A stretch of DNA of 64,000 bases from Candidatus Omnitrophota bacterium (GTDB lineage: Bacteria; Omnitrophota; Gorgyraeia; Zapsychrales; Fredricksoniimonadaceae), in the NCBI GenBank assembly GCA_044225175.1, contig JBGAJA010000001.1, positions 329,178 through 393,177 on the forward strand. The letters run 5' to 3'. Positions 10,932 to 32,662 of this stretch are shown piece after piece. Made by a program: the position numbers and the translations under genes. Numbering within the stretch: position 1 is the first letter of the stretch; each line of letters begins with the position of its first letter. The notes beneath the pieces are model-generated. The model saw only the letters and a program-made list of their open reading frames with translations, had not been told where the DNA came from and made no database searches.

Positions 10932-12926
10932 ATGGCTAAAGCATTAGTTATCGTTGAATCTCCCGCCAAGGTTAAGACAATCAATAAGATACTGGGAAAG
11001 AAGTTTAAGGTCACGGCTTCTATGGGGCATTTGATTGATTTACCTCGCTCTAAGATGGGTGTAGATATTGAGCATGATTTTGCTCCTGGTTTTATTGCTG
11101 TCAGAGCCAAGATGAAAACTTTGAAGAAATTGAAAGAAGAAGCTAAAGATGTGGATGAAATCTATATTGCAACTGATCCGGATCGTGAAGGGGAAGCTAT
11201 TGGTTGGAACTTAATTGAACATATTGCTAAGGGTAAGAAGGTTCTGCGAGTTGTCTTTCATGAAATCACAAAGGATGCGGTAAAGAAAGCTTTTGAGAAT
11301 CCTCGTGAATTCGATATGAAGAAAGTTGATGCTCAAAATGCTCGTCGGGTATTAGATCGTATCGTGGGATATGCGATTTCTCCAATTCTTTGGAAAAAGG
11401 TTGGTTCAAGATTAAGTGCAGGTAGGGTTCAGTCGGTAGCATTGCGTTTGATTGTAGATCGTGATAGTGATATCAAAAAATTTATTCCAGTGGAGTACTG
11501 GCAAATTGCTGTGGATCTTCAGAAAAAAGGAGTAAAGGATCTTTTAACAGCAGCTCTTGAAAAGATTGATGGAATTAAGGTTGATCTAAAGGCAGAAGGC
11601 CAAACTAAGAGTACTGTTAAAGAGATCAAAGAGCAGACTTTTAAGATTGCGGCAATTAATAAAAAACAAGTTAAGCGCAATGCCCCTGCACCTTTTATTA
11701 CGAGTTCTCTTCAACAAGAAGCTTTTGGAAAATTAGGTTTTAATACTTCTCGTACCATGTCTATCGCCCAAGGGCTTTACGAAGGGGTTGAGATTGGAGA
11801 GGAAGAACCTGTTGGTTTGATTACTTACATGCGTACGGATTCATTTAATATTGCTAATGAAGCCCTCGAGAATGTCCGTGCTTACATTAAGAAGCAGTAT
11901 GGTTCAGAATATCTGCCTGAAATACCCAATAAATTTAAGACAAAGAAGAGTGCTCAAGAAGCTCATGAAGCCATTCGTCCAACAGATATTCTTCGTAAAC
12001 CTGAAGATCTGAGAGACTTCCTAGATGAAGATCAATTTCGTCTCTATAATCTTATTCATAAACGTTTTATTGCCTGTCAGATGACGCCAGCTGTTTTTGA
12101 TCAAACTAAGATCGAAATTGGAGCTGGCCGTTTTACTTTTGGAGCTTCAGGATCGTCTTTGAGCTTTGCGGGATATTTATCTGTGTATAAAGATGGAGAT
12201 GAGCAGGAAGAAGGCAAGCTTGATCCCTCTAATTATGCTAAAGATGACATTCTAGAATTAATTGACCTTAAATCCACCCAGCATTTCACAAAACCTCCAG
12301 CCAGATATTCTGAAGCTAGTCTTGTTAAGGCATTGGAAGAAAATGGTATTGGAAGACCTAGTACATACGCATCAATCATTGGGACCTTGGTTGCCCGTAA
12401 TTATGTTGTGCGCGAAAGGGGTTATTTTGATGCCACAGATTTGGGGATTAAAATTTGTCTGCTTTTGATGGAATACTTTAAGAAGATTATGGATATTGGT
12501 TTTACAGCTCACATGGAAGAAGGTCTTGATTCAATTGAAGAGGGTCAGACAACCTATGCTGTATTGCTTAAAGACTTTTATGGTCCTTTTAAAGAAGAAT
12601 TGGATCATGCGGATGCCAATATCCAAAAGACCCATGTCACAATCAATAGAAATTGTCCTGAATGTGGAAAACCTTTAGCAGTCAAATGGGGACGGCGTGG
12701 AAGATTTATCAGTTGTACTGGATTTCCTGATTGCAAACATGCAGAACCTTTCACTACAGATGTTCCTTGTCCACAAGAGGGTTGTACAGGAAAGTTGGTT
12801 GAACGCCGTGCCATGCGTGGAAACACGTTCTATGGATGTAGTCGTTTCCCCGAATGTAAATTCATTGCTAATAAACTACCTGTTGCTCCAGTTGCCAGCC
12901 TGCCTACCGGACAGGCAGGCCCATGA
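10932..12926 (+). CDS. topA: DNA topoisomerase I
   Basis: Toprim N-terminus 'LVIVESPAKVKTI', the 'DPDREGE' motif and C-terminal C4 zinc ribbons. Confidence 0.95.
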   Translation: MAKALVIVESPAKVKTINKILGKKFKVTASMGHLIDLPRSKMGVDIEHDFAPGFIAVRAKMKTLKKLKEEAKDVDEIYIATDPDREGEAIGWNLIEHIAKGKKVLRVVFHEITKDAVKKAFENPREFDMKKVDAQNARRVLDRIVGYAISPILWKKVGSRLSAGRVQSVALRLIVDRDSDIKKFIPVEYWQIAVDLQKKGVKDLLTAALEKIDGIKVDLKAEGQTKSTVKEIKEQTFKIAAINKKQVKRNAPAPFITSSLQQEAFGKLGFNTSRTMSIAQGLYEGVEIGEEEPVGLITYMRTDSFNIANEALENVRAYIKKQYGSEYLPEIPNKFKTKKSAQEAHEAIRPTDILRKPEDLRDFLDEDQFRLYNLIHKRFIACQMTPAVFDQTKIEIGAGRFTFGASGSSLSFAGYLSVYKDGDEQEEGKLDPSNYAKDDILELIDLKSTQHFTKPPARYSEASLVKALEENGIGRPSTYASIIGTLVARNYVVRERGYFDATDLGIKICLLLMEYFKKIMDIGFTAHMEEGLDSIEEGQTTYAVLLKDFYGPFKEELDHADANIQKTHVTINRNCPECGKPLAVKWGRRGRFISCTGFPDCKHAEPFTTDVPCPQEGCTGKLVERRAMRGNTFYGCSRFPECKFIANKLPVAPVASLPTGQAGP

Positions 12927-13798
12927 AACAACATCTAGAGAAATTCCTCTCTTATCTAGAAGTTGAAAAAAATTACTCGTCTCACACCTTGCTTAATTAC
13001 AAACTTGATTTGCAAGAATTTGCTACATTCCTAGGTACAACTCCAGTCGAGCAATCTGACTACACTACGTTACGTCGCTTTCTAGCTCAAATGAGAACTC
13101 AGAATTTGAAGCCTCGCAGTGTTGCTCGTAAGCTTTCATCGCTTCGAAGTTTTTTTAAATACCTACAAAGAGAGAAAATTGTCTCTACGAATCCAGCTTC
13201 TTTATTGGTTACGCCAAAGTTAGATAAGCCCCTACCACATTTTTTAAGCGAACAAGAAGCCACTCAAATCATCGAATCCCCAGGAAAAAAAGACTCAAAA
13301 AAGGTGTCAGACACCTTTTTAAGAGATAAAGCTATCTTTGAGACTTTATACTCTACGGGAATACGTGTAAGTGAGCTTGTGGGTCTAGATATTGATGATG
13401 TGGATTTCATTAGTAATATTATCAGGGTTATGGGAAAAGGAAGAAAAGAACGTTTAGTTCCTATAGGGGATAAGGCCTTGGAAGCACTGCAGTTTTATAT
13501 AGACAAGCGAACTCAAAAAGGTAATATCCTTTTTCTAAATAAAAATTCCACACGTTTAACAAGCCGCAGTGTCTCCAATATCATTAATAAATATGTTCTC
13601 CAAGAAGCTATGGCTCAACATATCACTCCACACATGTTCCGCCACTCATTTGCAACCCATCTTCTCAACCGCGGAGCAGATTTACGATCAGTTCAAGAGC
13701 TATTGGGCCATGTAAATCTTTCTACAACGCAAATTTATACCCACCTGACTACCGATAAACTTAAGAAAGTCTATGACAAGGCTCATCCAAGGGCGTGA
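12923..13798 (+). CDS. Tyrosine recombinase, XerC/XerD family (housekeeping, translationally coupled to topA)
   Basis: Core-binding N-domain and catalytic 'HMFRHSFATHLL...LGHVNLSTTQIYTH' (R..H..R/H..Y). ATGA overlap with topA. dprA-topA-xerC synteny as in Firmicutes. Confidence 0.85.
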   Translation: MKQHLEKFLSYLEVEKNYSSHTLLNYKLDLQEFATFLGTTPVEQSDYTTLRRFLAQMRTQNLKPRSVARKLSSLRSFFKYLQREKIVSTNPASLLVTPKLDKPLPHFLSEQEATQIIESPGKKDSKKVSDTFLRDKAIFETLYSTGIRVSELVGLDIDDVDFISNIIRVMGKGRKERLVPIGDKALEALQFYIDKRTQKGNILFLNKNSTRLTSRSVSNIINKYVLQEAMAQHITPHMFRHSFATHLLNRGADLRSVQELLGHVNLSTTQIYTHLTTDKLKKVYDKAHPRA

Positions 13799-13882
13799 TT
13801 AATAAAAATTTATTAATTATTTACAATGATATTAAAATGCTTATTATCAGTAATTATTAATATATTTAAAAAAGGAAGATCA

Positions 13883-14113
13883 ATGAAAATCGTTAGCAGT
13901 AGAGAAATGCTAAGAGACCAAGATGTTTTAAAAGAAATTAATCGTTATAAATGGATCCAAAGTGAAAAAGAAGGATCAGATATTGGTTTTGAAAGAGCTG
14001 CAAGAGAGTGGATTAATTCTTATTCCAATTCATACCTTAATAGCCATCCCGGAAAAGCGACATCGATGTTAATTACCAGTTTTTTTAACACAGAAATTCA
14101 TATTAAATATTGA
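13883..14113 (+). CDS. Small conserved hypothetical protein, paralog of 32712-32948
   Basis: Shares 'L.D..V..EINR.KW..SE..G.DIGFE.AA..W' with the ORF at 32712. AAAGGAAG RBS precedes the ATG at 13883. Confidence 0.55.
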   Translation: MKIVSSREMLRDQDVLKEINRYKWIQSEKEGSDIGFERAAREWINSYSNSYLNSHPGKATSMLITSFFNTEIHIKY

Positions 14114-14144
14114 TTTTAAATCAAATTTGTTCAATATTTTGTAT

Positions 14145-14180
14145 TGACAATTTCCTTTTTATTTGTAATATATAACTCAT
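14145..14180 (+). promoter_or_regulatory. Putative sigma70-type promoter (TTGACA, 17 bp spacer, AATATA/TATATA) in the long AT-rich leader
   Basis: TTGACAatttcctttttatttgtAATATAtaact lies about 240 nt upstream of the 14421 operon. Confidence 0.35.
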
Positions 14181-14309
14181 ATTGATGATAAATCAATAAT
14201 TCGATTCCCCATCGAATAAAGAAGTTATTCAAATAATCTCCCCAAAGCAACAACGTTTAATGAAATCTCCAAAAGTTTTAGAATTTTATGAAACATATCA
14301 AAATAATCA

Positions 14310-14336
14310 AATTGTGTCCGTAGTGCTGACACAATT
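14310..14336 (+). promoter_or_regulatory. Perfect 9-bp inverted repeat in the 5' leader of the pilin-collar operon
   Basis: AATTGTGTC-cgtagtgct-GACACAATT. No trailing U-tract, so an operator or RNA structure is more likely than a terminator. Confidence 0.4.
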
Positions 14337-14420
14337 GAGTTGGACAAACCATTTGCTCATTCTTTCAAAAACAAAGAAACTGCATGAATATTTCATGTTA
14401 GGTCAAGGAGGTTTGCAAAT

Positions 14421-15320
14421 ATGAAATACTATTTTAAGTTTCAAAAAGCTTTTTCTTTAATTGAAATGTCCATTGTCATGGCAGTTATGGCGGTTTTAGC
14501 TTCTTCGGTTGTTCCGATTGCGATTCGATCTGTGGAGGTGAGGGCTGGGGAAAAAACGGCATTAGAAATGGCTATGATTCAAGAGGCTAGTCAAAATTAT
14601 TTGATTGATAATCATTTATGGCCTTCTGATATAGCAGAATTGCAGGCGAAAGGTTATTTGAACCCTGACTGGATACCTCATAATCCGTGGCATAATTCTA
14701 ATCATAATAATTTGTACGTACTTTCTGCTACGAATTCACTTTTGACAGTATCAACAGATGTTCCTCAGCAATGGTCTAATCTGGTAGCCAGTCATTTGCC
14801 CGGCATTACTATTATTTCTTTGGACAATGGTTATAGCACGGTTTCAAGCAGTATATCCGTCTCAGATAGACACAATAGTGTTCCTACTGGAACAATTATT
14901 CCTTGGTCAGCACCGGTAGATAAGATCCAGGAAGGGTATCTTTTGTGCGATGGCCAAAGTATTAGTCGTGAGAATTTCTCTGATCTTTATTCAGTTATAG
15001 GTACTACATATGGCAGCGATGATACCTCGACTTTTAAAGTTCCTGATTTAAGAGGAAGAACAATAGTTGGATTTAATCATCTGGATGAAGATTTTGGTAC
15101 GCTTGGTCAAGCGGGAGGTGCTAAATCTCACTCTCATATCACTGACGGAAATACGGACTCTGTTCAGATTCGAAATGGGGGGAATTGGAGAATAGACGAT
15201 AACTCAGGTGGGAGTGATTACAATGTTATTGATCCTCATAATCATCACGTGAGGATCCAAAGTGATTCTCAAAAGAATCTATCTCCCTATGTAACAGTGC
15301 ATTTTGTCATTAAAACATAA
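14421..15320 (+). CDS. Fusion protein: type IV pilin-like N-terminus + phage tail-collar (PF07484-type) C-terminal domain
   Basis: N-terminal 'FSLIEMSIVMAVMAVLASSVV' prepilin-like helix with Glu+5. C-terminal 'GYLLCDGQSISRENFSDLYSVIGTTYGSDDTSTFKVPDLRGRTIVG' collar signature. GGAGG RBS. Confidence 0.65.
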   Translation: MKYYFKFQKAFSLIEMSIVMAVMAVLASSVVPIAIRSVEVRAGEKTALEMAMIQEASQNYLIDNHLWPSDIAELQAKGYLNPDWIPHNPWHNSNHNNLYVLSATNSLLTVSTDVPQQWSNLVASHLPGITIISLDNGYSTVSSSISVSDRHNSVPTGTIIPWSAPVDKIQEGYLLCDGQSISRENFSDLYSVIGTTYGSDDTSTFKVPDLRGRTIVGFNHLDEDFGTLGQAGGAKSHSHITDGNTDSVQIRNGGNWRIDDNSGGSDYNVIDPHNHHVRIQSDSQKNLSPYVTVHFVIKT

Positions 15321-15340
15321 ACGATTTTTAGAGAAATCGT

Positions 15341-16123
15341 ATGGTATTTATCCTTATATTCGTTCTGATTCTTTCATCCAATGCTTGGTCTCAGGGAGAT
15401 TTTGATGAACAGAGATCTACGTTATCAAAGTTAGCCGATGAAAGTTGTATTGGAATAGTGCCCTTGGGAGTTTGTCCAAAGGCGAAACATGTGGTTGGTG
15501 CTTTAGTATTATTAAGGGAACCAAGTTTAATCATTCAAACAATTAAGAAAAGCGGGGCTTCTTCCGGAGGCTTAAACGATGGGAATTTACAATTTAATGA
15601 GGTTCGTGTGCTTAATAATCCTTTAGCCAGAAGCTTTCATCAAGCTATTTGTTCGGATCTTCCGGATACTTCGCCCGAAATTTATTATATTTCAGAGCCA
15701 GATGCTCTTGGTTGGAAAGAAGGGAGCTTTGAAAGAAATCTTCCCCAGAGTAGGGTTGCCTCTCAAATAGCCTCTCAATGCTTTCGATTGCCTTTGGGGG
15801 CTCAAGACCAATGTATGAAAACTTGGGGGACACTTTATCCACGGACAGGTTTTATAGTCTCTTCAAGTGAGCCGATGGCTTCAGCCGTTAGCGCAGTCCG
15901 AGCGGTCAGTATTGCTAAAGATCCAGCTCCAGCCCATATTGTTGAATCAAGGTTGCAGTATTCTTTTAATATCAAAGAAGATAAGTTACAAATGATTCAG
16001 CCTGTAACCTCGGTTTCTTGTATCTCTATTGGACAAAACCCTTCAAGTTGGGAAAAAGGCAAAACATCAAAGGATGGTCAGTATGTCTGGTTTTATTGGA
16101 ATTGGCGTCTGTGTTGTATTTAG
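15341..16123 (+). CDS. TraU-like Cys-rich periplasmic protein (F-type conjugative-pilus assembly family), short form
   Basis: Signal peptide. Cys-containing blocks CIGIVPLGVCP, EIYYISEPDALGW, CFRLPLG..C..W and C-terminal 'SSWEKGKTSKDGQYVWFYWNWRLCCI' match TraU blocks as I recall them. Confidence 0.4.
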   Translation: MVFILIFVLILSSNAWSQGDFDEQRSTLSKLADESCIGIVPLGVCPKAKHVVGALVLLREPSLIIQTIKKSGASSGGLNDGNLQFNEVRVLNNPLARSFHQAICSDLPDTSPEIYYISEPDALGWKEGSFERNLPQSRVASQIASQCFRLPLGAQDQCMKTWGTLYPRTGFIVSSSEPMASAVSAVRAVSIAKDPAPAHIVESRLQYSFNIKEDKLQMIQPVTSVSCISIGQNPSSWEKGKTSKDGQYVWFYWNWRLCCI

Positions 16124-24745: not shown

Positions 24746-27700
24746 ATGCTTAAGATTTATTGCTTCCGAAGGACTCTGTGCCTGGGACTAATTTTTGCTT
24801 TTTTGCTTAATACCATTGGCCCATTGCCAGCTTATGCTCACGAACCTCGCCTCCGGAACCTCGTAGGTTCCGAAGGCCAGGTTCCGCAAGGTTTGCCTAA
24901 GCCTGGGGTCATGGTCCATCTAAGCGCCCCTGTAAATCCCCCTTTGCTCAAAGGAATCAAAGTCCATCCAGATAACCCTTTTAGGTTCGATTTTATCCTG
25001 GATACAGGGTATGTCTCCGTCGAGGATACAGATAATTTAAGGCAAGAATCCAGCCGTCTAATCAAGTACTTTTTAGCCTCTTTAACCACCCCAGAAGCCG
25101 ACCTATGGGTGAACCTAAGCCCCTATGAGAAGAATCGTATAGTTCCCGAAAGCTTTGGCCAAACCGAGATGGGCCGAGACCTCCTAGCCCAGGACTACAT
25201 GCTCAAACAAATCACAGCCAGTTTAATGTACCCAGAAGATGGGGTAGGAAAGAGGTTTTGGAAGAGAATCTATGAAGAATCGGCCAAAAGGTATGGAACA
25301 ACCAATATTCCGGTCAATACCTTCAATAAAGTATGGATAGTCCCTGAGAAGGCAGTAGTGTATGAGAATGCCAAGGCAGGGACGGCGTATGTGGTGGAAT
25401 CCAGGTTGAAGGTGATGTTGGAGGAGGATTATGTATCTGTGCAGAAACATTCAAAAACATTGTCGTCCCCGAATGTTTTAGTCGGGGACCTAGGACACGA
25501 GGGTGCTAGATTCCCGACAAAAGCATTCGGGAATGACAAGGATGTTAATATAGGTAATCAAATCATCCGCGAAATCGTCATCCCCGAATTAACCAAGGAA
25601 ATCAATGAAGGATCGAATTTCGCCCAATTGCGTCAGGTCTATAACAGTCTGATCCTGGCCACCTGGTACAAGAAGAAAATTAAAGATTCAATCTTTACGA
25701 AGGTTTATGTGGATCGGAATAAGGTTGTGGGTCTTGGGTATATGGGAGGTGAGCCACAACAAATCTACCAACGCTACCTGAATGCCTTCAAGAAAGGTGT
25801 TTACAATTATATCAAGGAAGAATCCGATCCAATTTCCCAGAAACGTGTCACAAGAAAATATTTTAGCGGAGGCACTACATTTAACGATCAAGCCATGAAT
25901 GCAGTATTTCATACTACCCAAGATGGTACAAAAATTATTAAGATGGCAATTGATAATTCAGTTATTGTTCAGGTTGGCATAAAAGATTTTGCTATGGCTA
26001 GTACTAAACTCAAATCTCCGTCTGATATATTGGTTTATACACCTGAAAATGGAGCCACTGTAAAAAAGGGTAGAATAACTGGAGCTAAGCCAGTTGAAAT
26101 TTTTCCCAACGCGATCTGGGCAACAAGAAATATATCTCAACTTGTACAAGGTAATGAATTTCTTGTAGATATTCCATTAACCAAGGATAAAAAATTTCGT
26201 CTTTTAGGAGTGGATTGGAATTTAAGAGGAGGATCTGAAGGAGAAAGAATAGTAGCGCAGTTTAGAAAAGAGGACGGAAATTATGTTTTAATAACTGCTT
26301 ACAATGAAGCAGGAGAAGTAATTTACGAAAAAGATATTGATTCAAAGATTGAACAAAACAAAGAAGCAAAAGTTTATACTCCTGGGTCAGGAGCAAAGAT
26401 TGAAAATGGAAAAATTGTAGGAAAACCCACTGATAAATTTCCTCAAAACGCAGCCACGCGAAGACTATTAGAGCTAAATTTAGAAGAGTTTTATTTAGAT
26501 GTCAAACTCAATAGTGGAGGACAACTAAATCTTTTTCAAGAGAATTGGTGGGGCAAGAAGACAGAGTATGCAGACCAAAGAGTAAGTGTTCATTTTAAGA
26601 AAGAAAAAGGAGCGTACCAACTAGTAGCTGCTTATGACAAAGACGGAAATCTCATTTATCCTATTTCTGAAGATGAACAAATCCAATTATTTATTCCTTC
26701 TGATAAAACTCGTATTGAAAATGGAAAAGTTATCGGTACGCCTAGTCAAACATATTCTAATAAACATACCGCCATTAAATCTATTGATCTTCCGGAGTTT
26801 TATATAAAACTCCGTCTTAATCAATACGGTGGGCTTAATATGTGGGGACAACAAATGGCTCCCCGAAAAGGCTATGAAAATGCTGAAGTTCTCGTTCATT
26901 TCAAAAAATTTGAAGATACATATACCGCCATAGCTATTTATGACGCAAATGGAGAACAAATCGAACAGGAAGCCCCTGAACAAGTCGTTATTTATATTCC
27001 CAAAGAAGGGACAAGGTTAGAGAACGGAAAGATTGTTGGTAAAGCTTCACGTACATATGACAGTAGAATTTGGGCGGCCCGTGAATTAATGACTGATATC
27101 GCAAATTCACCAGAAGAATTTTACACTGAATTGACTTTAACCGATAAGGGCGGCTTTTCTTTCTTTAGTAAATGGTGGGCATCAAAAAAAGGTTACGAAA
27201 AGGCAAAAATTACAGCTCACTTTCGAAAAGTTAAGAATGAGTATGATCTGGTCGCTGTATATGATTCTAATGGTCAAGAAATCTATAGCCAAAATAAACA
27301 ACAAGAAGGGAAGATAGAAATTTTTACCCCTCAAAATGGTTCGCATATCAAAGATGGATTGCTTCAAGCCGGTCAACCTGAAACTGTTTTGTATCATGCA
27401 AGATCTGTACCAACCTATCTTGAAGATCACCCTCTTGAAGAATTTTTTGTAAGAACACATTTGGATGATAAGGGTGGTTTTTATCTAATGGGAGAGCATT
27501 GGTGGACGAGTAAAAGTGGTTCTGAAAATGTAGAGGTGGTCGTCCACTTTAAGAAAAATGAAGAAGGACAATATGAGTTGGAAGCTGCTTATGACCAAAA
27601 AGGTCAAGATTTAACCGTTGAAAAAGAACCAATAAAGATCTATGCCTCTAGAAATGGAGCAACAATTGTTCAAGGGAAAATATCAGGACAACCTGTTAGT

Positions 27701-30700
27701 CAATTTCCTAAGAAGACGCAAGCGTTACGCTTATTGAAGCAGTTGGATAGTGAAGATATTTATCTAGAAGTCACTCTTAGTAATGATGGTGGTTTTCTTA
27801 TTAGTTCTTATCGTAAATTAGCTTTGCCAGGCTATGAAAATACAAAAGTATTACTTCATTTTCAAAATAAAAATTCAAAAAAGAACCTTATCAATGTATA
27901 TGACAGCCAAGGCAATGTTATCTGGGGAGAAATTTACGATAGTAAAACAAGAGTTTATATCGCAGACAATGAAGTAAAATTAAATGAAGGAAAGGTTGTT
28001 GGTCAACCGGCAGAAACATTTACTACTCAAAGGGATGCTATTAAATTTGTTACTGCAAGAAAAATTAAGGAATTTTATTTAACTACTCCACTCACATCAC
28101 AGGCAGGTATTTACTTAGGCAGAGATTTTTGGCAATCAGATAATATAAGAAAACACCAGAACTCACTTGCTACTCTCCATTTTCGTTTAAATGAAGGCTC
28201 CCAATATGAACTTGTAGCGAGCTATGATCAAGATGGTAGGCGGTTGAACTTAATAAAAGTTAAATCTGATGAGATTATTGAAATTCACACTTCCGAAGGT
28301 GGATCAAAAATAGAAAATGGGTTTATTGTAGGAGAACCAATCGAGATATCTTCTAGTAAACTTGCCGCACAGCAGATTGTATCAGCAATGAGTCACTCCG
28401 ATGTTTTTGTAAAAATGCGTATAGGAGAAATGGGCAAAATTAGTTTTATGGGGCATTGGGCAAGCAGGTCTAATTCTGCCAATAAAGAAGTGCATTCGCA
28501 TTTTAAAAAACAAGATATGAGATATGTGTTGGTTGCTGCCTATGAGGCTGGTCAGAAAATTTATCCGAAAGAAGAGAACGAACAGGATAAGATCAGTATT
28601 TATAGCGCACATACAGGGGCTGTAATTGAGGAAGGGAAAATTAAAGGTCAACCTATTGAAACATTTAGTGACAAGATTCAAGCGTCATTGACTATACAAT
28701 CAATGGGATTGACAGACTTTTTTGTAAAAATGCGTTTGGATGGACAGGGTAAGCTATATTTTCTTGGAAGACATTGGTGGGGAGGCAAGAAAGGTCATGA
28801 AGATGCAGAGGTTTTGATACATTTTAAAAAGAGTCCAGAAAAAGGTTATGAATTAATTGATGCCTATGATAATCAAGGTAATTTAATCTACCCTACTGGA
28901 AAAAGAGATCCTTATAGTGTAGAAAGAAAAAGATTTAACGTAATGATTGGGGCCGAAGAAGCTCAAAAATTACTAGAAACATTAGGGCTGGAGGCCACAT
29001 TTGGACTTCTTTCACGGGCACATGGCTTCACCCCAACATTCCTTGCTCAAACACTAACGGGTTATGCCGAGAAAATACAAAGTGAAGGTAATCAGTTTGG
29101 GTATGCTTCAAATCGTAGTTTTTCATTTGTTCAAGCGCGACAATCCAACGTTTTTAGTAAAATTGAGCCTGATAAGCTGGATGTAGTTGTCGAGACATTG
29201 ATAAGAAGCATGTATAAGGATGTTGTTGAAGATAATCATTTTCTTAATGTTTTAAGAGAGCAAAGTGAAAATCCTTCCAATGGAGACATGCTGCAAAAAG
29301 CTTATAAACAAGTAGCTGATTATTATGACCATCAATTAAAAATCGAAATGGGAGGCATTGATGAAACAGCTATTTTACCGAAACTATACCAGAGGATTGG
29401 CGCGCAGTTTTTAATTGATAGAAAGCATGCCATTCTAGCTGATGAACCTGGTTTAGGAAAAACACTAGAAGCGATCATGGCAGTTGTGAATGTGCCGGAA
29501 TTTGACAAAGATGTAAGAGATGCGGGTTATCGAGAAGGTGAAATGATAGAGCCAAAAGAGAAGATTTTAATTATTGCACCTAAAAGAGCAGCTGATCGTG
29601 TATGGAAAAGAGAAATCCAAGCATATACAACGGGTCGTTTAAAGGTTGAAGTAGTTAACCGATCAAAAATTCGTAGCCGTTCAACAGTAGATAAAAACCC
29701 CGAATTAAATCTAAAAAGAAGATTTGATAGAATCAAGCAGGCCCAAGTTCTTATTGTTAATCCTTATGCAATTGCAGGAGAAGATGGTAACGGATTGCTT
29801 TTAAGAGAACATCTTAAGCAGTTTAAATATAAGGTCATCATATTGGATGAAGCTCATAATATTCGTAATGAAAGTACATTGACTGATGCTGTCCGTGAAT
29901 TTGATGCTGAATATAAATTCGCTTTGACTGCGACTCCTTTGGTTGGACAAACAGTTGCAAAATTATTTAATTTACTTCAATGGCTATATCCAGAACGGTA
30001 TAAAGATAAATGGAACTTTTCAGTTAAATATGCTGGCAGAGAGAAGGCATTTTTATTAAGACAAGAGTTGCGGCCATTTTTGTTAAGACGAACAAAAGTG
30101 GATGTTACAGACATGCCTTTAAAGAATTATGTTAACGTTCCCGTAAGCCTTACTGATGAAGAAAGACAATTTTATTTAGAGGTTGCAAATTACTTCTCAA
30201 TCTGGATAAAAAGTTCTATTAGACAAAATGATCCAAAATATTATTTGAAGATTCTTTCTCAACTTTCTCGACTACGCTTAGCAGCCCTCAATACGGGATT
30301 GATTATTCGCCTTCAAAATAATGGAGAAAAGATTTTTGCTTATACTGGAGGAAGCTTCACTCTGGGCAATCGTAAGTATAGATTTACTAAAGAAAAGGAA
30401 GTTATTGTTGGTTTGAAGGATGAAGAGGGGCATGAATTTCGTTTTGAAAAAGGGAAGTCAGGTACTCAAGTTACTATTGATAAGAAAGTTTATGAAGTTC
30501 AGGTTAAGGATAATTTAAATCCAAGCCGGTATTTAGCTATTGATAAAATTATAGAGGAGAAAATAGCTAAAGGGGAAAAGGTTATTCTAAATACGAATTA
30601 TCGGGAAGTTGTTTTTCAATTAGCGGCTCGGTATAAACATTATGGGGTGAATTATGCATTTGGTGATATGACAAGCTCCCAAGTTGATAGTGAAATTGAA

Positions 30701-32662
30701 GCTTTTCAAGAAAATCCAGATCAGAAAATATTCATTGCTACTTATGGTTCTGGATCAGAAGCAATATCCTTAACTGCTGCTAATAATGTTATTGAAGTTG
30801 ATAAGCCCACATATCCTCTTGTGCGTATCCAAGCTAATGACCGTCCTCATCGTTGGGGACAGGATAAAATAGTAAATATTTATCGTTTAACGGGCATTGA
30901 TACGATTGATGAATATTTTGAATTCCAGCTTACACGATCAGAAGCGTTATTTCGTTTGCTTTTTGAAGTTGGTGAGCCATTGCCAAACTTTAATCAGGAA
31001 ATTATTAAGGAATTATTAAGGGAATTAAAATATCCCGACGAAATCATTGACCATTTTCTTAAGATACACGAAGGTTTAGGTGCTAAGGTGAATAATCAGC
31101 CTCCTGACACGGTCACCAATGAATTTATTGACCAGAGTTCTGGTATAAGTATGCGTTTCACTGATGGAAATATATCAGGACGATTTTCAACTAATCAAGG
31201 ATTTGTTGAACCTAAAACAACATCCCAATTAGTATCTATCGCTAAAGATTTAACAGATCCATCTAAGAAATTCTTAAGAAATTTTCTTGAGAAACGCCTA
31301 ACCGAAGAAATTAACCTCAAAGTTCCAATTAAGCAATCTGTCTTATGGTCGTTATTAAATGTTCTTATGCCACAATTGACAAAGGTTGATACGAACTATT
31401 CCATTGAACGTAATTTGGAAATTGGACGCATTGTTATCAGTCTACTTTTACAAAACCCGAGCCTTAAGTATGAGGATTTACTTGGATCTGTTAATGATCA
31501 ATTAAGCTTATCGAAAGCTTTATATTTCTTGGATGAGCGTAATATATTTAAGCTATTTTCTTTGCTCGGAGTTCTTGATCAACAATATTATTTTGATGGA
31601 GAGTTGCTTTCCTACGCATCTCCCTTAAAACTCGGCATTACTAACGGAAATCTTGTGTATACGGATGAAAAGATCGTTAATGCGATTGCTCCTGATAGAT
31701 ACCGTGAACCTAAGCTCAAAACTGATCCTAATCGTTCTTTTCAAAATTTAGCTCGAAGGTATCGATTTTTGACAAGAGAAGAAGAAATACGGTTAGGAAG
31801 GGAGGCTGGTAAAGGTAATTTGGCCGCCCGGGTAGCTTTAGTTGAAGCTCATTATTATTATATTGTGGATACAACCTATAGGATTATTCAAAGACAACTT
31901 AAGGAAAGAGCGCTTATATCTTCCTCGTTTTTTAAATTAGATAGAAAGACTTTATATGAAGATCTTTATGCTCTAGGTCAGAATGTCTTATATGAGCTTT
32001 CCAGCTCTTATTACATTGAATCAAAAACTATCAATTTCCGAAATTATGTAAGACCAAAATTTTTAAAAGCAATAATTGCAGAATTTTACCGTCAAATTCG
32101 TTTAGTAGATAAGGAAAAGAAAACTTTAGATGTTACGGTTGAGCCAAGGAAGGGTAGATCATTCATTCGTGCTGAAAATGTAAAATCTGATGAATATCTT
32201 TCTCCTATGAGTCTTAATCCGGAATCTTCTATAGCAATAGCTATAACTAAGATTTTAGAGGCAAATGGATACAGAGATCAAGAGATTCAAGCGTATTTTA
32301 TGGCAATGACTGAACAAATCGTTCCTAAAAAGATAGCGCATGATTTGAAGATTTCAATACGCCAGATTAGAAGCATCGTTGATGATGCAAAAATTATTTT
32401 ACAAGGATCAAAACAATTACAGCAAGACTTTCATTCCATAAAAGATGCAGATTCAGCAGATGAAGCAATGAAATCCAGAAAAGGGGGAATAGACTTTACA
32501 GATGATAAAATATCTTTGGGTGTCCAGAGAATTGGTGATGGTATTAAATTTAATATGGATCCCGCCATATTGAATCGCCTGCAAAATGCTCCTGGCTTTT
32601 ATCCGGTGATTATCAATATTGCTCCTCTTTCTGATTTAAATACTTTTTTGAGCTTAAATTAG
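24746..32662 (+). CDS. Giant multidomain protein (2638 aa): signal peptide + novel N-domain + 9 tandem ~107-aa repeats + SNF2-family ATPase + C-terminal sigma-70-like module
   Basis: SP MLKIYCFRRTLCLGLIFAFLLNTIGPLPAYA|HEP. The N-domain (aa ~40-375) is paralogous to 60607-62928. SNF2 motifs are 'ILADEPGLGKTLEAI', 'LDEAHNIRN' and 'QANDRPHRWGQ'. The C-terminus has sigma region 1.2/2 ('LTREEEIRLGREAGKGN..ARVALVEAH', 'GQNVLYEL..INFRNYVRPKFLKAII') and region 4-like ('HDLKISIRQIRSIVDDAKIIL'). Confidence 0.85.
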   Translation: MLKIYCFRRTLCLGLIFAFLLNTIGPLPAYAHEPRLRNLVGSEGQVPQGLPKPGVMVHLSAPVNPPLLKGIKVHPDNPFRFDFILDTGYVSVEDTDNLRQESSRLIKYFLASLTTPEADLWVNLSPYEKNRIVPESFGQTEMGRDLLAQDYMLKQITASLMYPEDGVGKRFWKRIYEESAKRYGTTNIPVNTFNKVWIVPEKAVVYENAKAGTAYVVESRLKVMLEEDYVSVQKHSKTLSSPNVLVGDLGHEGARFPTKAFGNDKDVNIGNQIIREIVIPELTKEINEGSNFAQLRQVYNSLILATWYKKKIKDSIFTKVYVDRNKVVGLGYMGGEPQQIYQRYLNAFKKGVYNYIKEESDPISQKRVTRKYFSGGTTFNDQAMNAVFHTTQDGTKIIKMAIDNSVIVQVGIKDFAMASTKLKSPSDILVYTPENGATVKKGRITGAKPVEIFPNAIWATRNISQLVQGNEFLVDIPLTKDKKFRLLGVDWNLRGGSEGERIVAQFRKEDGNYVLITAYNEAGEVIYEKDIDSKIEQNKEAKVYTPGSGAKIENGKIVGKPTDKFPQNAATRRLLELNLEEFYLDVKLNSGGQLNLFQENWWGKKTEYADQRVSVHFKKEKGAYQLVAAYDKDGNLIYPISEDEQIQLFIPSDKTRIENGKVIGTPSQTYSNKHTAIKSIDLPEFYIKLRLNQYGGLNMWGQQMAPRKGYENAEVLVHFKKFEDTYTAIAIYDANGEQIEQEAPEQVVIYIPKEGTRLENGKIVGKASRTYDSRIWAARELMTDIANSPEEFYTELTLTDKGGFSFFSKWWASKKGYEKAKITAHFRKVKNEYDLVAVYDSNGQEIYSQNKQQEGKIEIFTPQNGSHIKDGLLQAGQPETVLYHARSVPTYLEDHPLEEFFVRTHLDDKGGFYLMGEHWWTSKSGSENVEVVVHFKKNEEGQYELEAAYDQKGQDLTVEKEPIKIYASRNGATIVQGKISGQPVSQFPKKTQALRLLKQLDSEDIYLEVTLSNDGGFLISSYRKLALPGYENTKVLLHFQNKNSKKNLINVYDSQGNVIWGEIYDSKTRVYIADNEVKLNEGKVVGQPAETFTTQRDAIKFVTARKIKEFYLTTPLTSQAGIYLGRDFWQSDNIRKHQNSLATLHFRLNEGSQYELVASYDQDGRRLNLIKVKSDEIIEIHTSEGGSKIENGFIVGEPIEISSSKLAAQQIVSAMSHSDVFVKMRIGEMGKISFMGHWASRSNSANKEVHSHFKKQDMRYVLVAAYEAGQKIYPKEENEQDKISIYSAHTGAVIEEGKIKGQPIETFSDKIQASLTIQSMGLTDFFVKMRLDGQGKLYFLGRHWWGGKKGHEDAEVLIHFKKSPEKGYELIDAYDNQGNLIYPTGKRDPYSVERKRFNVMIGAEEAQKLLETLGLEATFGLLSRAHGFTPTFLAQTLTGYAEKIQSEGNQFGYASNRSFSFVQARQSNVFSKIEPDKLDVVVETLIRSMYKDVVEDNHFLNVLREQSENPSNGDMLQKAYKQVADYYDHQLKIEMGGIDETAILPKLYQRIGAQFLIDRKHAILADEPGLGKTLEAIMAVVNVPEFDKDVRDAGYREGEMIEPKEKILIIAPKRAADRVWKREIQAYTTGRLKVEVVNRSKIRSRSTVDKNPELNLKRRFDRIKQAQVLIVNPYAIAGEDGNGLLLREHLKQFKYKVIILDEAHNIRNESTLTDAVREFDAEYKFALTATPLVGQTVAKLFNLLQWLYPERYKDKWNFSVKYAGREKAFLLRQELRPFLLRRTKVDVTDMPLKNYVNVPVSLTDEERQFYLEVANYFSIWIKSSIRQNDPKYYLKILSQLSRLRLAALNTGLIIRLQNNGEKIFAYTGGSFTLGNRKYRFTKEKEVIVGLKDEEGHEFRFEKGKSGTQVTIDKKVYEVQVKDNLNPSRYLAIDKIIEEKIAKGEKVILNTNYREVVFQLAARYKHYGVNYAFGDMTSSQVDSEIEAFQENPDQKIFIATYGSGSEAISLTAANNVIEVDKPTYPLVRIQANDRPHRWGQDKIVNIYRLTGIDTIDEYFEFQLTRSEALFRLLFEVGEPLPNFNQEIIKELLRELKYPDEIIDHFLKIHEGLGAKVNNQPPDTVTNEFIDQSSGISMRFTDGNISGRFSTNQGFVEPKTTSQLVSIAKDLTDPSKKFLRNFLEKRLTEEINLKVPIKQSVLWSLLNVLMPQLTKVDTNYSIERNLEIGRIVISLLLQNPSLKYEDLLGSVNDQLSLSKALYFLDERNIFKLFSLLGVLDQQYYFDGELLSYASPLKLGITNGNLVYTDEKIVNAIAPDRYREPKLKTDPNRSFQNLARRYRFLTREEEIRLGREAGKGNLAARVALVEAHYYYIVDTTYRIIQRQLKERALISSSFFKLDRKTLYEDLYALGQNVLYELSSSYYIESKTINFRNYVRPKFLKAIIAEFYRQIRLVDKEKKTLDVTVEPRKGRSFIRAENVKSDEYLSPMSLNPESSIAIAITKILEANGYRDQEIQAYFMAMTEQIVPKKIAHDLKISIRQIRSIVDDAKIILQGSKQLQQDFHSIKDADSADEAMKSRKGGIDFTDDKISLGVQRIGDGIKFNMDPAILNRLQNAPGFYPVIINIAPLSDLNTFLSLN
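26020..28920 (+). repeat. Nine in-frame tandem repeats of ~320 nt (~107 aa) inside the giant gene
   Basis: Each unit: '[IV]Y.P..G..IENGK[IV]VG.P...F......L......EFY......GG.......W....GYE.A.V..HFKK....Y.L.A.YD..G..IY'. Unit starts fall near 26023, 26371, 26681, 26983, 27313, 27633, 27948, 28280 and 28593. Confidence 0.8.

Follow-up and report, generated by a model that had tools for sequence, protein, structure and literature searches.

The sigma factors known so far are free subunits that can be exchanged for one another. A 64,000-nucleotide stretch of DNA from a Candidatus Omnitrophota bacterium (the window) raises the question of what such a factor could be doing when it is built into a DNA translocase. 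In the window, a segment resembling a sigma factor and an SNF2 ATPase are encoded by one uninterrupted open reading frame (ORF), 24746..32662 on the + strand, as are all parts of it described below, with a product of 2638 amino acids. An identical entry, P0001, comes from an NCBI contig of 819,945 bp. A sequence-only reading had placed segments like sigma regions 1.2, 2 and 4 at the C-terminus of an SNF2 protein and had proposed a module that docks on RNA polymerase. Is the segment a sigma factor by descent, and what might it do for the motor to which it is joined?

Descent of the C-terminal module

Residues ~2329-2556 of the window protein form a genuine, if strongly diverged, sigma70-superfamily member. 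A search with the whole protein recovered P0001 and ~10 SNF2-bearing relatives with alignable C-terminal regions, and the C-terminal regions of those ten relatives were combined into a profile (A1). All 41 matches of profile A1 among PDB sequences were sigma factors, the best being SigA (8x6f_E, E 6.2e-9) with an alignment from region 1.2 to 3.0. Among 1.84 billion representative proteins, 1251 matched the profile at E<=1e-3, and the 36 with E<1e-10 belong to the family; ten of ten short matches sampled carried a Pfam-significant Sigma70_r2 plus r1_2 and/or r4. When an alignment of 30 family members was compared by hhalign with a template made from 85 of the true sigma factors retrieved, 230 columns were collinear, running from region 1.2 to 4.2 (99.6%, E 7.7e-24). 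The window sequence alone aligned over 209 columns (97.2%, E 4e-11). The sigma2-like part alone matched template positions 49-156 (99.1%, E 1.9e-18), and the sigma4-like part alone fell on template region 4 (92.5%, E 4.9e-7). Reversed or column-shuffled controls gave 0.1-0.4%, with E 0.16-0.58.

The predicted structure leads to the same family. An AlphaFold2 model of residues 2285-2563 has a mean predicted local distance difference test (pLDDT) score of 76.7, with ~90 across the sigma2-like helices, and all of the top 50 Foldseek matches to this model in the PDB are sigma factors. Structural matches thus exist independently for the sigma2-like and the sigma4-like domain. The segments pointed out in the sequence-only reading are therefore homologous to sigma regions 1.2/2 and 4, and profile, hhalign and structural matches place them in the right order and spacing. 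The three peptides quoted there are in frame, at residues 2341-2374 (nt 31766-31867), 2411-2447 (nt 31976-32086) and 2528-2552 (nt 32327-32401), and the protein is an SNF2 protein, with SNF2-rel_dom and Helicase_C upstream in the same ORF.

Comparisons that start from the window protein alone are far fainter. With Pfam, Sigma70_r1_2 reaches 12.5-15.4 bits where 22 are needed, and neither Sigma70_r2 nor Sigma70_r4 is matched on this protein alone. The single sequence stays below threshold; the profile of ~30 relatives is clearly sigma-like. The NCBIfam RpoS model gives E 0.0034, with 16.9 of the 378.7 bits that its cut-off demands, the RpoD model gives E 0.019, and a phmmer search of the PDB places RpoS at the top with E 0.42. 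A word-index search for homologs came back empty when the query was limited to the sigma-like region, the relatives appearing with the whole protein as query, and Pfam Sigma70_ECF matched one of ten members (E 0.04). Sub-threshold matches and an empty word-index search are what speaks for a resemblance by chance between helical, charged sequences. That explanation is effectively excluded by profile E-values of 6e-9 to 8e-24, by the negative shuffled and reversed controls, and by the structural matches to both domains.

The module is composed, in order, of region 1.2, regions 2.1-2.4, an acidic linker like region 3.2, and regions 4.1-4.2, as seen both in the hhalign alignment and in the model. 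The sigma domain-2-like part, with regions 1.2 and 2.1-2.4, occupies 31730..32110 (residues 2329-2455) and is supported by profile comparison with the PDB, hhalign and the residue map. It includes an insertion of ~15 residues between regions 2.1 and 2.2. The linker (32111..32227; residues ~2456-2494) is modeled with low confidence; its 'LD' motif aligns to the 'SLD' of sigma region 3.2, and its length, ~35 residues, is like that of extracytoplasmic function (ECF) sigma factors. The sigma domain-4-like helix-turn-helix, regions 4.1-4.2, was located by hhalign at 32228..32413 (residues 2495-2556). Region 1.1 and sigma3 (regions 3.0 and 3.1) are missing. The layout is ECF-like in the absence of sigma3 and group-1/3-like in the presence of region 1.2, and the clear presence of region 1.2 places the module outside the ECF (group 4) definition.

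A free-standing protein of the same composition was also found. P0148 (L006 2189-2998, on a 4.4-kb Logan contig) is a 269-aa sigma factor with regions 1.2, 2 and 4 and without region 3, and an almost end-to-end alignment puts it on positions 57-273 of the 285 in the family profile. The ancestor from which the module was captured may have looked like P0148.

The motor and the surviving sigma residues

The SNF2/Rad54-type ATPase lies at 29387..30859. Pfam SNF2-rel_dom covers residues 1548-1839 (E 4e-35) and Helicase_C residues 1932-2038 (E 8e-10). ATPase motifs I, II and VI are intact, with GLGKT at residue 1569, DEAH at residue 1701 and QANDRPHRWGQ at residue 2029. The nearest solved SNF2 domains among PDB matches to this region are archaeal Rad54-like and ISWI-type. 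Judged by these motifs and matches, the protein belongs to the SNF2 family and its core is of a generic Rad54/ISWI-like kind. Orthology to RapA was considered and rejected, since the window protein reaches 11.8 bits with the NCBIfam RapA/HepA model PRK04914, whose cut-off is 576; RapA is also absent from the best 60 of 74 PDB matches to the SNF2 region (E<=1e-5). Identification with the anti-phage proteins ZorD, DpdE or DrmD was likewise rejected, since the SNF2 core alone matches, at 22-46 bits against NCBIfam cut-offs of 500-1500. Nor does the protein belong to a recognizable defense system, with PADLOC matches confined to the helicase region and surrounding genes of the housekeeping kind.

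The motor and the module are parts of a larger cassette. A pre-helicase region (28946..29365) is conserved together with them. The post-helicase region (30923..31597) is a constant companion of the sigma-like module and has no known homolog; its ~225 residues (2060-2285) are without a meaningful relative in the PDB, where the best match is OspC (E 0.02). Directly before region 1.2 stands a strongly conserved beta-hairpin and helix (31598..31693) with the nearly invariant motif G.LL.Y...Y.D..IV..IAP. Pre-helicase region, SNF2, post-helicase region and sigma-like module co-occur in ~30 representative protein clusters, and among cassette members checked the Walker A motif is present in 22 of 22 and DExH in 21 of 22. 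Co-occurrence and intact motor motifs were counted in favor of a functional coupling of the module to the motor.

Which sigma functions the module could still serve depends on the residues it has kept, given here in E. coli sigma70 numbering with counts among 30 family members. The region 1.2/2.1 motif R.L..EE.RLA....GN.AA...L is near-invariant, as are the positions of the hydrophobic core. In region 2.2, D403 is D or E in 23/30, L404 is kept in 22/30 and G408 in 20/30, L412 is kept, and N409 is mostly Q. The equivalent of F419 is Y in 27/30, that of F427 is L in 21 and F in 8, and that of Y430 is Y in 23 and F in 6. With these three positions retained, a residual contact with single-strand DNA is possible. 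From the set Y430, W433, W434, Q437, T440 and R441, which serves at the -10 element, Y430 alone is kept. W433 is variable, W434 is replaced by R (16/30) or K, Q437 by P (13) or K (11), T440 by Y (16) or I, and R441 by S (14) or A; T429 has become E, D or N. In region 4.2, all five columns of the -35 contacts (R584, E585, R586, R588 and Q589) are variable, and the only conserved columns are those of the hydrophobic core (576, 587, 590 and 598). As read from the alignment, the residues that form the fold are kept, and those that would read or melt the -10 element and read the -35 element are lost. The residue map bears out the earlier claim that the aromatic and basic positions of region 2.4 have diverged, and the pattern at W433, W434, Q437, T440, R441 and T429 supports the suggestion that a -10 element may not be melted.

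These replacements bear on the possibility that the module is a working sigma factor with a non-canonical promoter specificity, in which ATP-driven opening of DNA by SNF2 would replace the lost tryptophan wedge, in the manner of TFIIH/XPB or of sigma54 with its AAA+ activators. All regions of a minimal (ECF-type) sigma factor are present in order, including the 3.2-like linker, the equivalents of Y430, F419 and F427 survive beside intact motor motifs, and ECF sigma factors are likewise not known to carry the W-dyad. However, the -10 and -35 contact positions vary freely within the family, unlike those of a family that reads one particular promoter. Q406 and E407 also lack conservation, and the module forms part of a leader-bearing protein of 2638 aa. 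A working sigma factor is considered improbable.

The explanation favored here, held at about even confidence, is that of an adaptor: the module, derived from sigma, would bring the SNF2 translocase to core RNA polymerase and would not serve as a promoter-specificity subunit. An adaptor is preferred to a promoter reader because the fold residues are kept while the -10 and -35 residues are lost. The adaptor would dock the motor where sigma usually sits, on the clamp helices of beta' and the flap of beta; once there, the motor would pull duplex DNA beside the polymerase and so remodel, displace or recycle it. The outcome would resemble that of RapA, with flap binding and competition with sigma70. 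Because the module has kept its two-domain geometry, such docking is plausible.

Several observations weigh against the adaptor. Among sigma residues, Q406 and E407 have the strongest link to binding of the beta' coiled coil. Q406 is Q in 6/30 and E407 is E in 6/30, with A and L in the window protein; the interface for canonical core binding is therefore altered, and such binding is not assured. No curated Pfam or NCBIfam sigma model reaches its threshold on the window protein, and a profile of the sigma4-like part alone has no significant match in the PDB, its matches being mostly designed helical repeat proteins. The protein also begins with a Sec-type leader and has no other hydrophobic segment, so that export away from its own polymerase is predicted.

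The loss of both the DNA-contact and the classical core-binding residues is also what would be expected if the sigma fold had been exapted away from RNA polymerase, either as a generic helical module for binding DNA or protein or as an intramolecular regulator of the SNF2 ATPase. The invariable presence in the cassette of two more conserved regions lacking an assigned function fits this explanation as well. It is harder to reconcile with the preservation, over deep divergence, of a full two-domain sigma architecture that includes region 1.2 and a 3.2-like linker of ECF length, which would be difficult to account for if the two-point geometry of sigma on the polymerase no longer mattered. Exaptation is regarded as possible, though unlikely.

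Carrier proteins, leaders and genomic context

The cassette is carried between elements that the window protein shares with a very large Omnitrophota paralog family; the search with the whole protein gave 2343 matches. The Sec-type leader (24746..24838) was read directly from the sequence as MLKIYCFRRT-LCLGLIFAFLLNTIGPLP-AYA|HE, with a putative cleavage site after AYA, and corresponds to the one hydrophobic segment (residues 11-29) detected in a Kyte-Doolittle scan of the window protein. It is followed by an N-domain (24878..25945; 24746-25945 with the leader; ~350 aa) that is conserved among the giant-protein paralogs at ~60% identity, has no assigned fold, and carries the motif LPxPGVMVHLSP..KGIKVHPDNPFRFDFILD.... 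At the other end, the conserved C-terminal tail of the paralog family (32468..32662) reads GGIDF...FNMDPAILNRLQNAPGFYPVIINIAP... in the window protein; the consensus of the paralogs is GGIDL...PGFVPVIINIQP, also written GGIDL..IKFHLDPAML.QLQNAPGFVPVIINIQP. N-domain and C-tail have no match in Pfam, NCBIfam or the PDB. Among the best 120 of the 2343 matches, the N-domain is present in 114 and the tail of ~60 residues in 108. The N-terminus is complete in 91, and each of the 91 starts with a Sec-like hydrophobic leader, 84 of them with an AxA-like site. What lies between N-domain and tail is cargo of cytoplasmic type that differs extremely from one paralog to another, including methyltransferases, HATPase_c, REC, GGDEF, HEAT, WD40, PLD and MutS.

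Between the N-domain and the cassette, the window protein has ~9 tandem repeats of ~105 aa (26078..28945) that belong to no known family. Their motif is ..EFYL..L...GG......WW..K.GYE.A.V.VHFKK....Y.LVAAYD..G..IY, or in short form ..HF[KR]K..Y.LVAAYD..G..., and the sole library match is a faint Por_Secre_tail-like one at residues 828-859.

The same SNF2-sigma cassette is found in a second type of carrier. P0133 and P0134 have another leader (..HAFLVSNLAWA..) and another C-terminus, which suggests that the cassette has moved between carrier scaffolds. Two Omnitrophota giants with a leader of the P0133/P0134 type, P0142 (4042 aa) and P0145 (4552 aa), contain two sigma70 modules each, set amid TPR, GNAT, methyltransferase and 5-formyltetrahydrofolate cyclo-ligase domains. 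Sigma70_r4 in P0142 (E 1e-13) and Sigma70_r4_2 in P0145 are above the Pfam threshold. These modules keep FKFSTYA and a canonical region 4.2, and the W-dyad is absent there too. Given the second carrier type and the modules of P0142 and P0145, sigma-derived modules in leader-bearing giants are a recurring theme in Omnitrophota.

Since the leader predicts export, it is conceivable that the protein is an effector of predatory or parasitic Omnitrophota aimed at the RNA polymerase of bacterial prey or host cells. The sigma mimic would dock on the core polymerase of the other cell, and the motor would stall or strip this polymerase or redirect transcription. Leader, N-domain and C-tail would then form a delivery scaffold for cytoplasm-type cargo, common to at least hundreds of paralogs. 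This explanation is speculative and its likelihood is considered low. Should it be correct, the cassette, carried on leader-bearing giants in a phylum regarded as predatory or dependent on hosts, could be a weapon against the transcription machinery of another cell.

Named sources of cassette proteins are Candidatus Omnitrophota or Omnitrophica. A pattern scan located five loci in metagenome-assembled genomes of Omnitrophota, four labeled Omnitrophota and one labeled Ca. Elulimicrobium. The occurrence of the cassette in ~30 clusters and the leader are additions to the sequence-only reading, as are the 3.2-like linker and the absence of sigma3. In the window, the surrounding genes are housekeeping genes, among them those for ArgRS, RecJ, PepF, a SpoU methylase, TPM, LemA, iPGM, topoisomerase I and SufBD. 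A stretch of another character (12923-16123) is set in these otherwise housekeeping surroundings, with an ORF for a XerC/D-type tyrosine recombinase (12923..13798) followed by one with a phage tail-collar domain (14421..15320) and a TraU-like ORF (15341..16123). Of the 45 ORFs of >=150 aa in the window, all are on the + strand except one at the right edge, and GC skew is positive across the whole window, consistent with one replichore. Rfam has no match anywhere in the window.

Comparison with known systems

The components of the window protein are of known kinds; the combination of SNF2 with sigma and the degenerate sigma itself are new. The searchable literature, the coverage of which is incomplete, yielded no account of a fusion between SNF2 and sigma or of a paralog family defined by this N-domain and C-tail. 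A complete sigma2-linker-sigma4 module is hard-wired here to an SNF2 translocase, and the arrangement is conserved across many Omnitrophota lineages. If the module binds polymerase, it would be a natural case of a sigma fold without the residues that read promoters.

The closest relatives of the module within the sigma70 family are the minimal sigma2-linker-sigma4 forms (ECF/group 4) and small free sigma factors such as P0148. Its sigma2 and sigma4 domains are homologous to those of the family and follow one another as they do there, with an acidic linker in between, and its region 1.2/2.1 motif is near that of groups 1-3. It differs from ECF factors in having region 1.2 and from groups 1-3 in being without sigma3. 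Unlike free sigma subunits, it is fixed at residues 2329-2556 of a 2638-aa protein, and in contrast to the sigma70 family as a whole its -10 and -35 contacts and Q406/E407 are not conserved and its scores fall below all curated thresholds.

Giant proteins are known from Omnitrophota, where archaeovorin and dockerin types, encoded by ORFs of great length, combine an N-terminal leader with domains of mixed kinds (bioRxiv 10.1101/2023.11.21.568195; PMC10066038). These differ from the window protein in being encoded by over 20-30 kb and in having many transmembrane helices and SecA-like, adhesion and carbohydrate-active domains. Neither SNF2, nor sigma in the transcriptional sense, nor the N-domain/C-tail paralog family appears in the giant-gene papers examined (bioRxiv 10.1101/2023.11.21.568195; PMC10066038).

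The favored adaptor also has counterparts among proteins that act on bacterial RNA polymerase. Mfd and HelD likewise join an ATPase to a domain that interacts with RNA polymerase, and serve to displace or recycle it; they belong to other ATPase families, use other docking domains, and show no sequence relationship to the window protein in the comparisons made here. RapA is an SNF2 ATPase with its primary site on RNA polymerase at the beta flap, which is the site of sigma4, and it competes with sigma70 (PMC8666675). The likeness to RapA/HepA lies in the SNF2 motor, proposed here to act on RNA polymerase as well. However, RapA docks through its own N-terminal domain, whereas the window protein has a sigma-like module instead. 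If that module does bind polymerase, the protein would represent, after RapA, a second and independently evolved coupling of an SNF2 motor to bacterial RNA polymerase.

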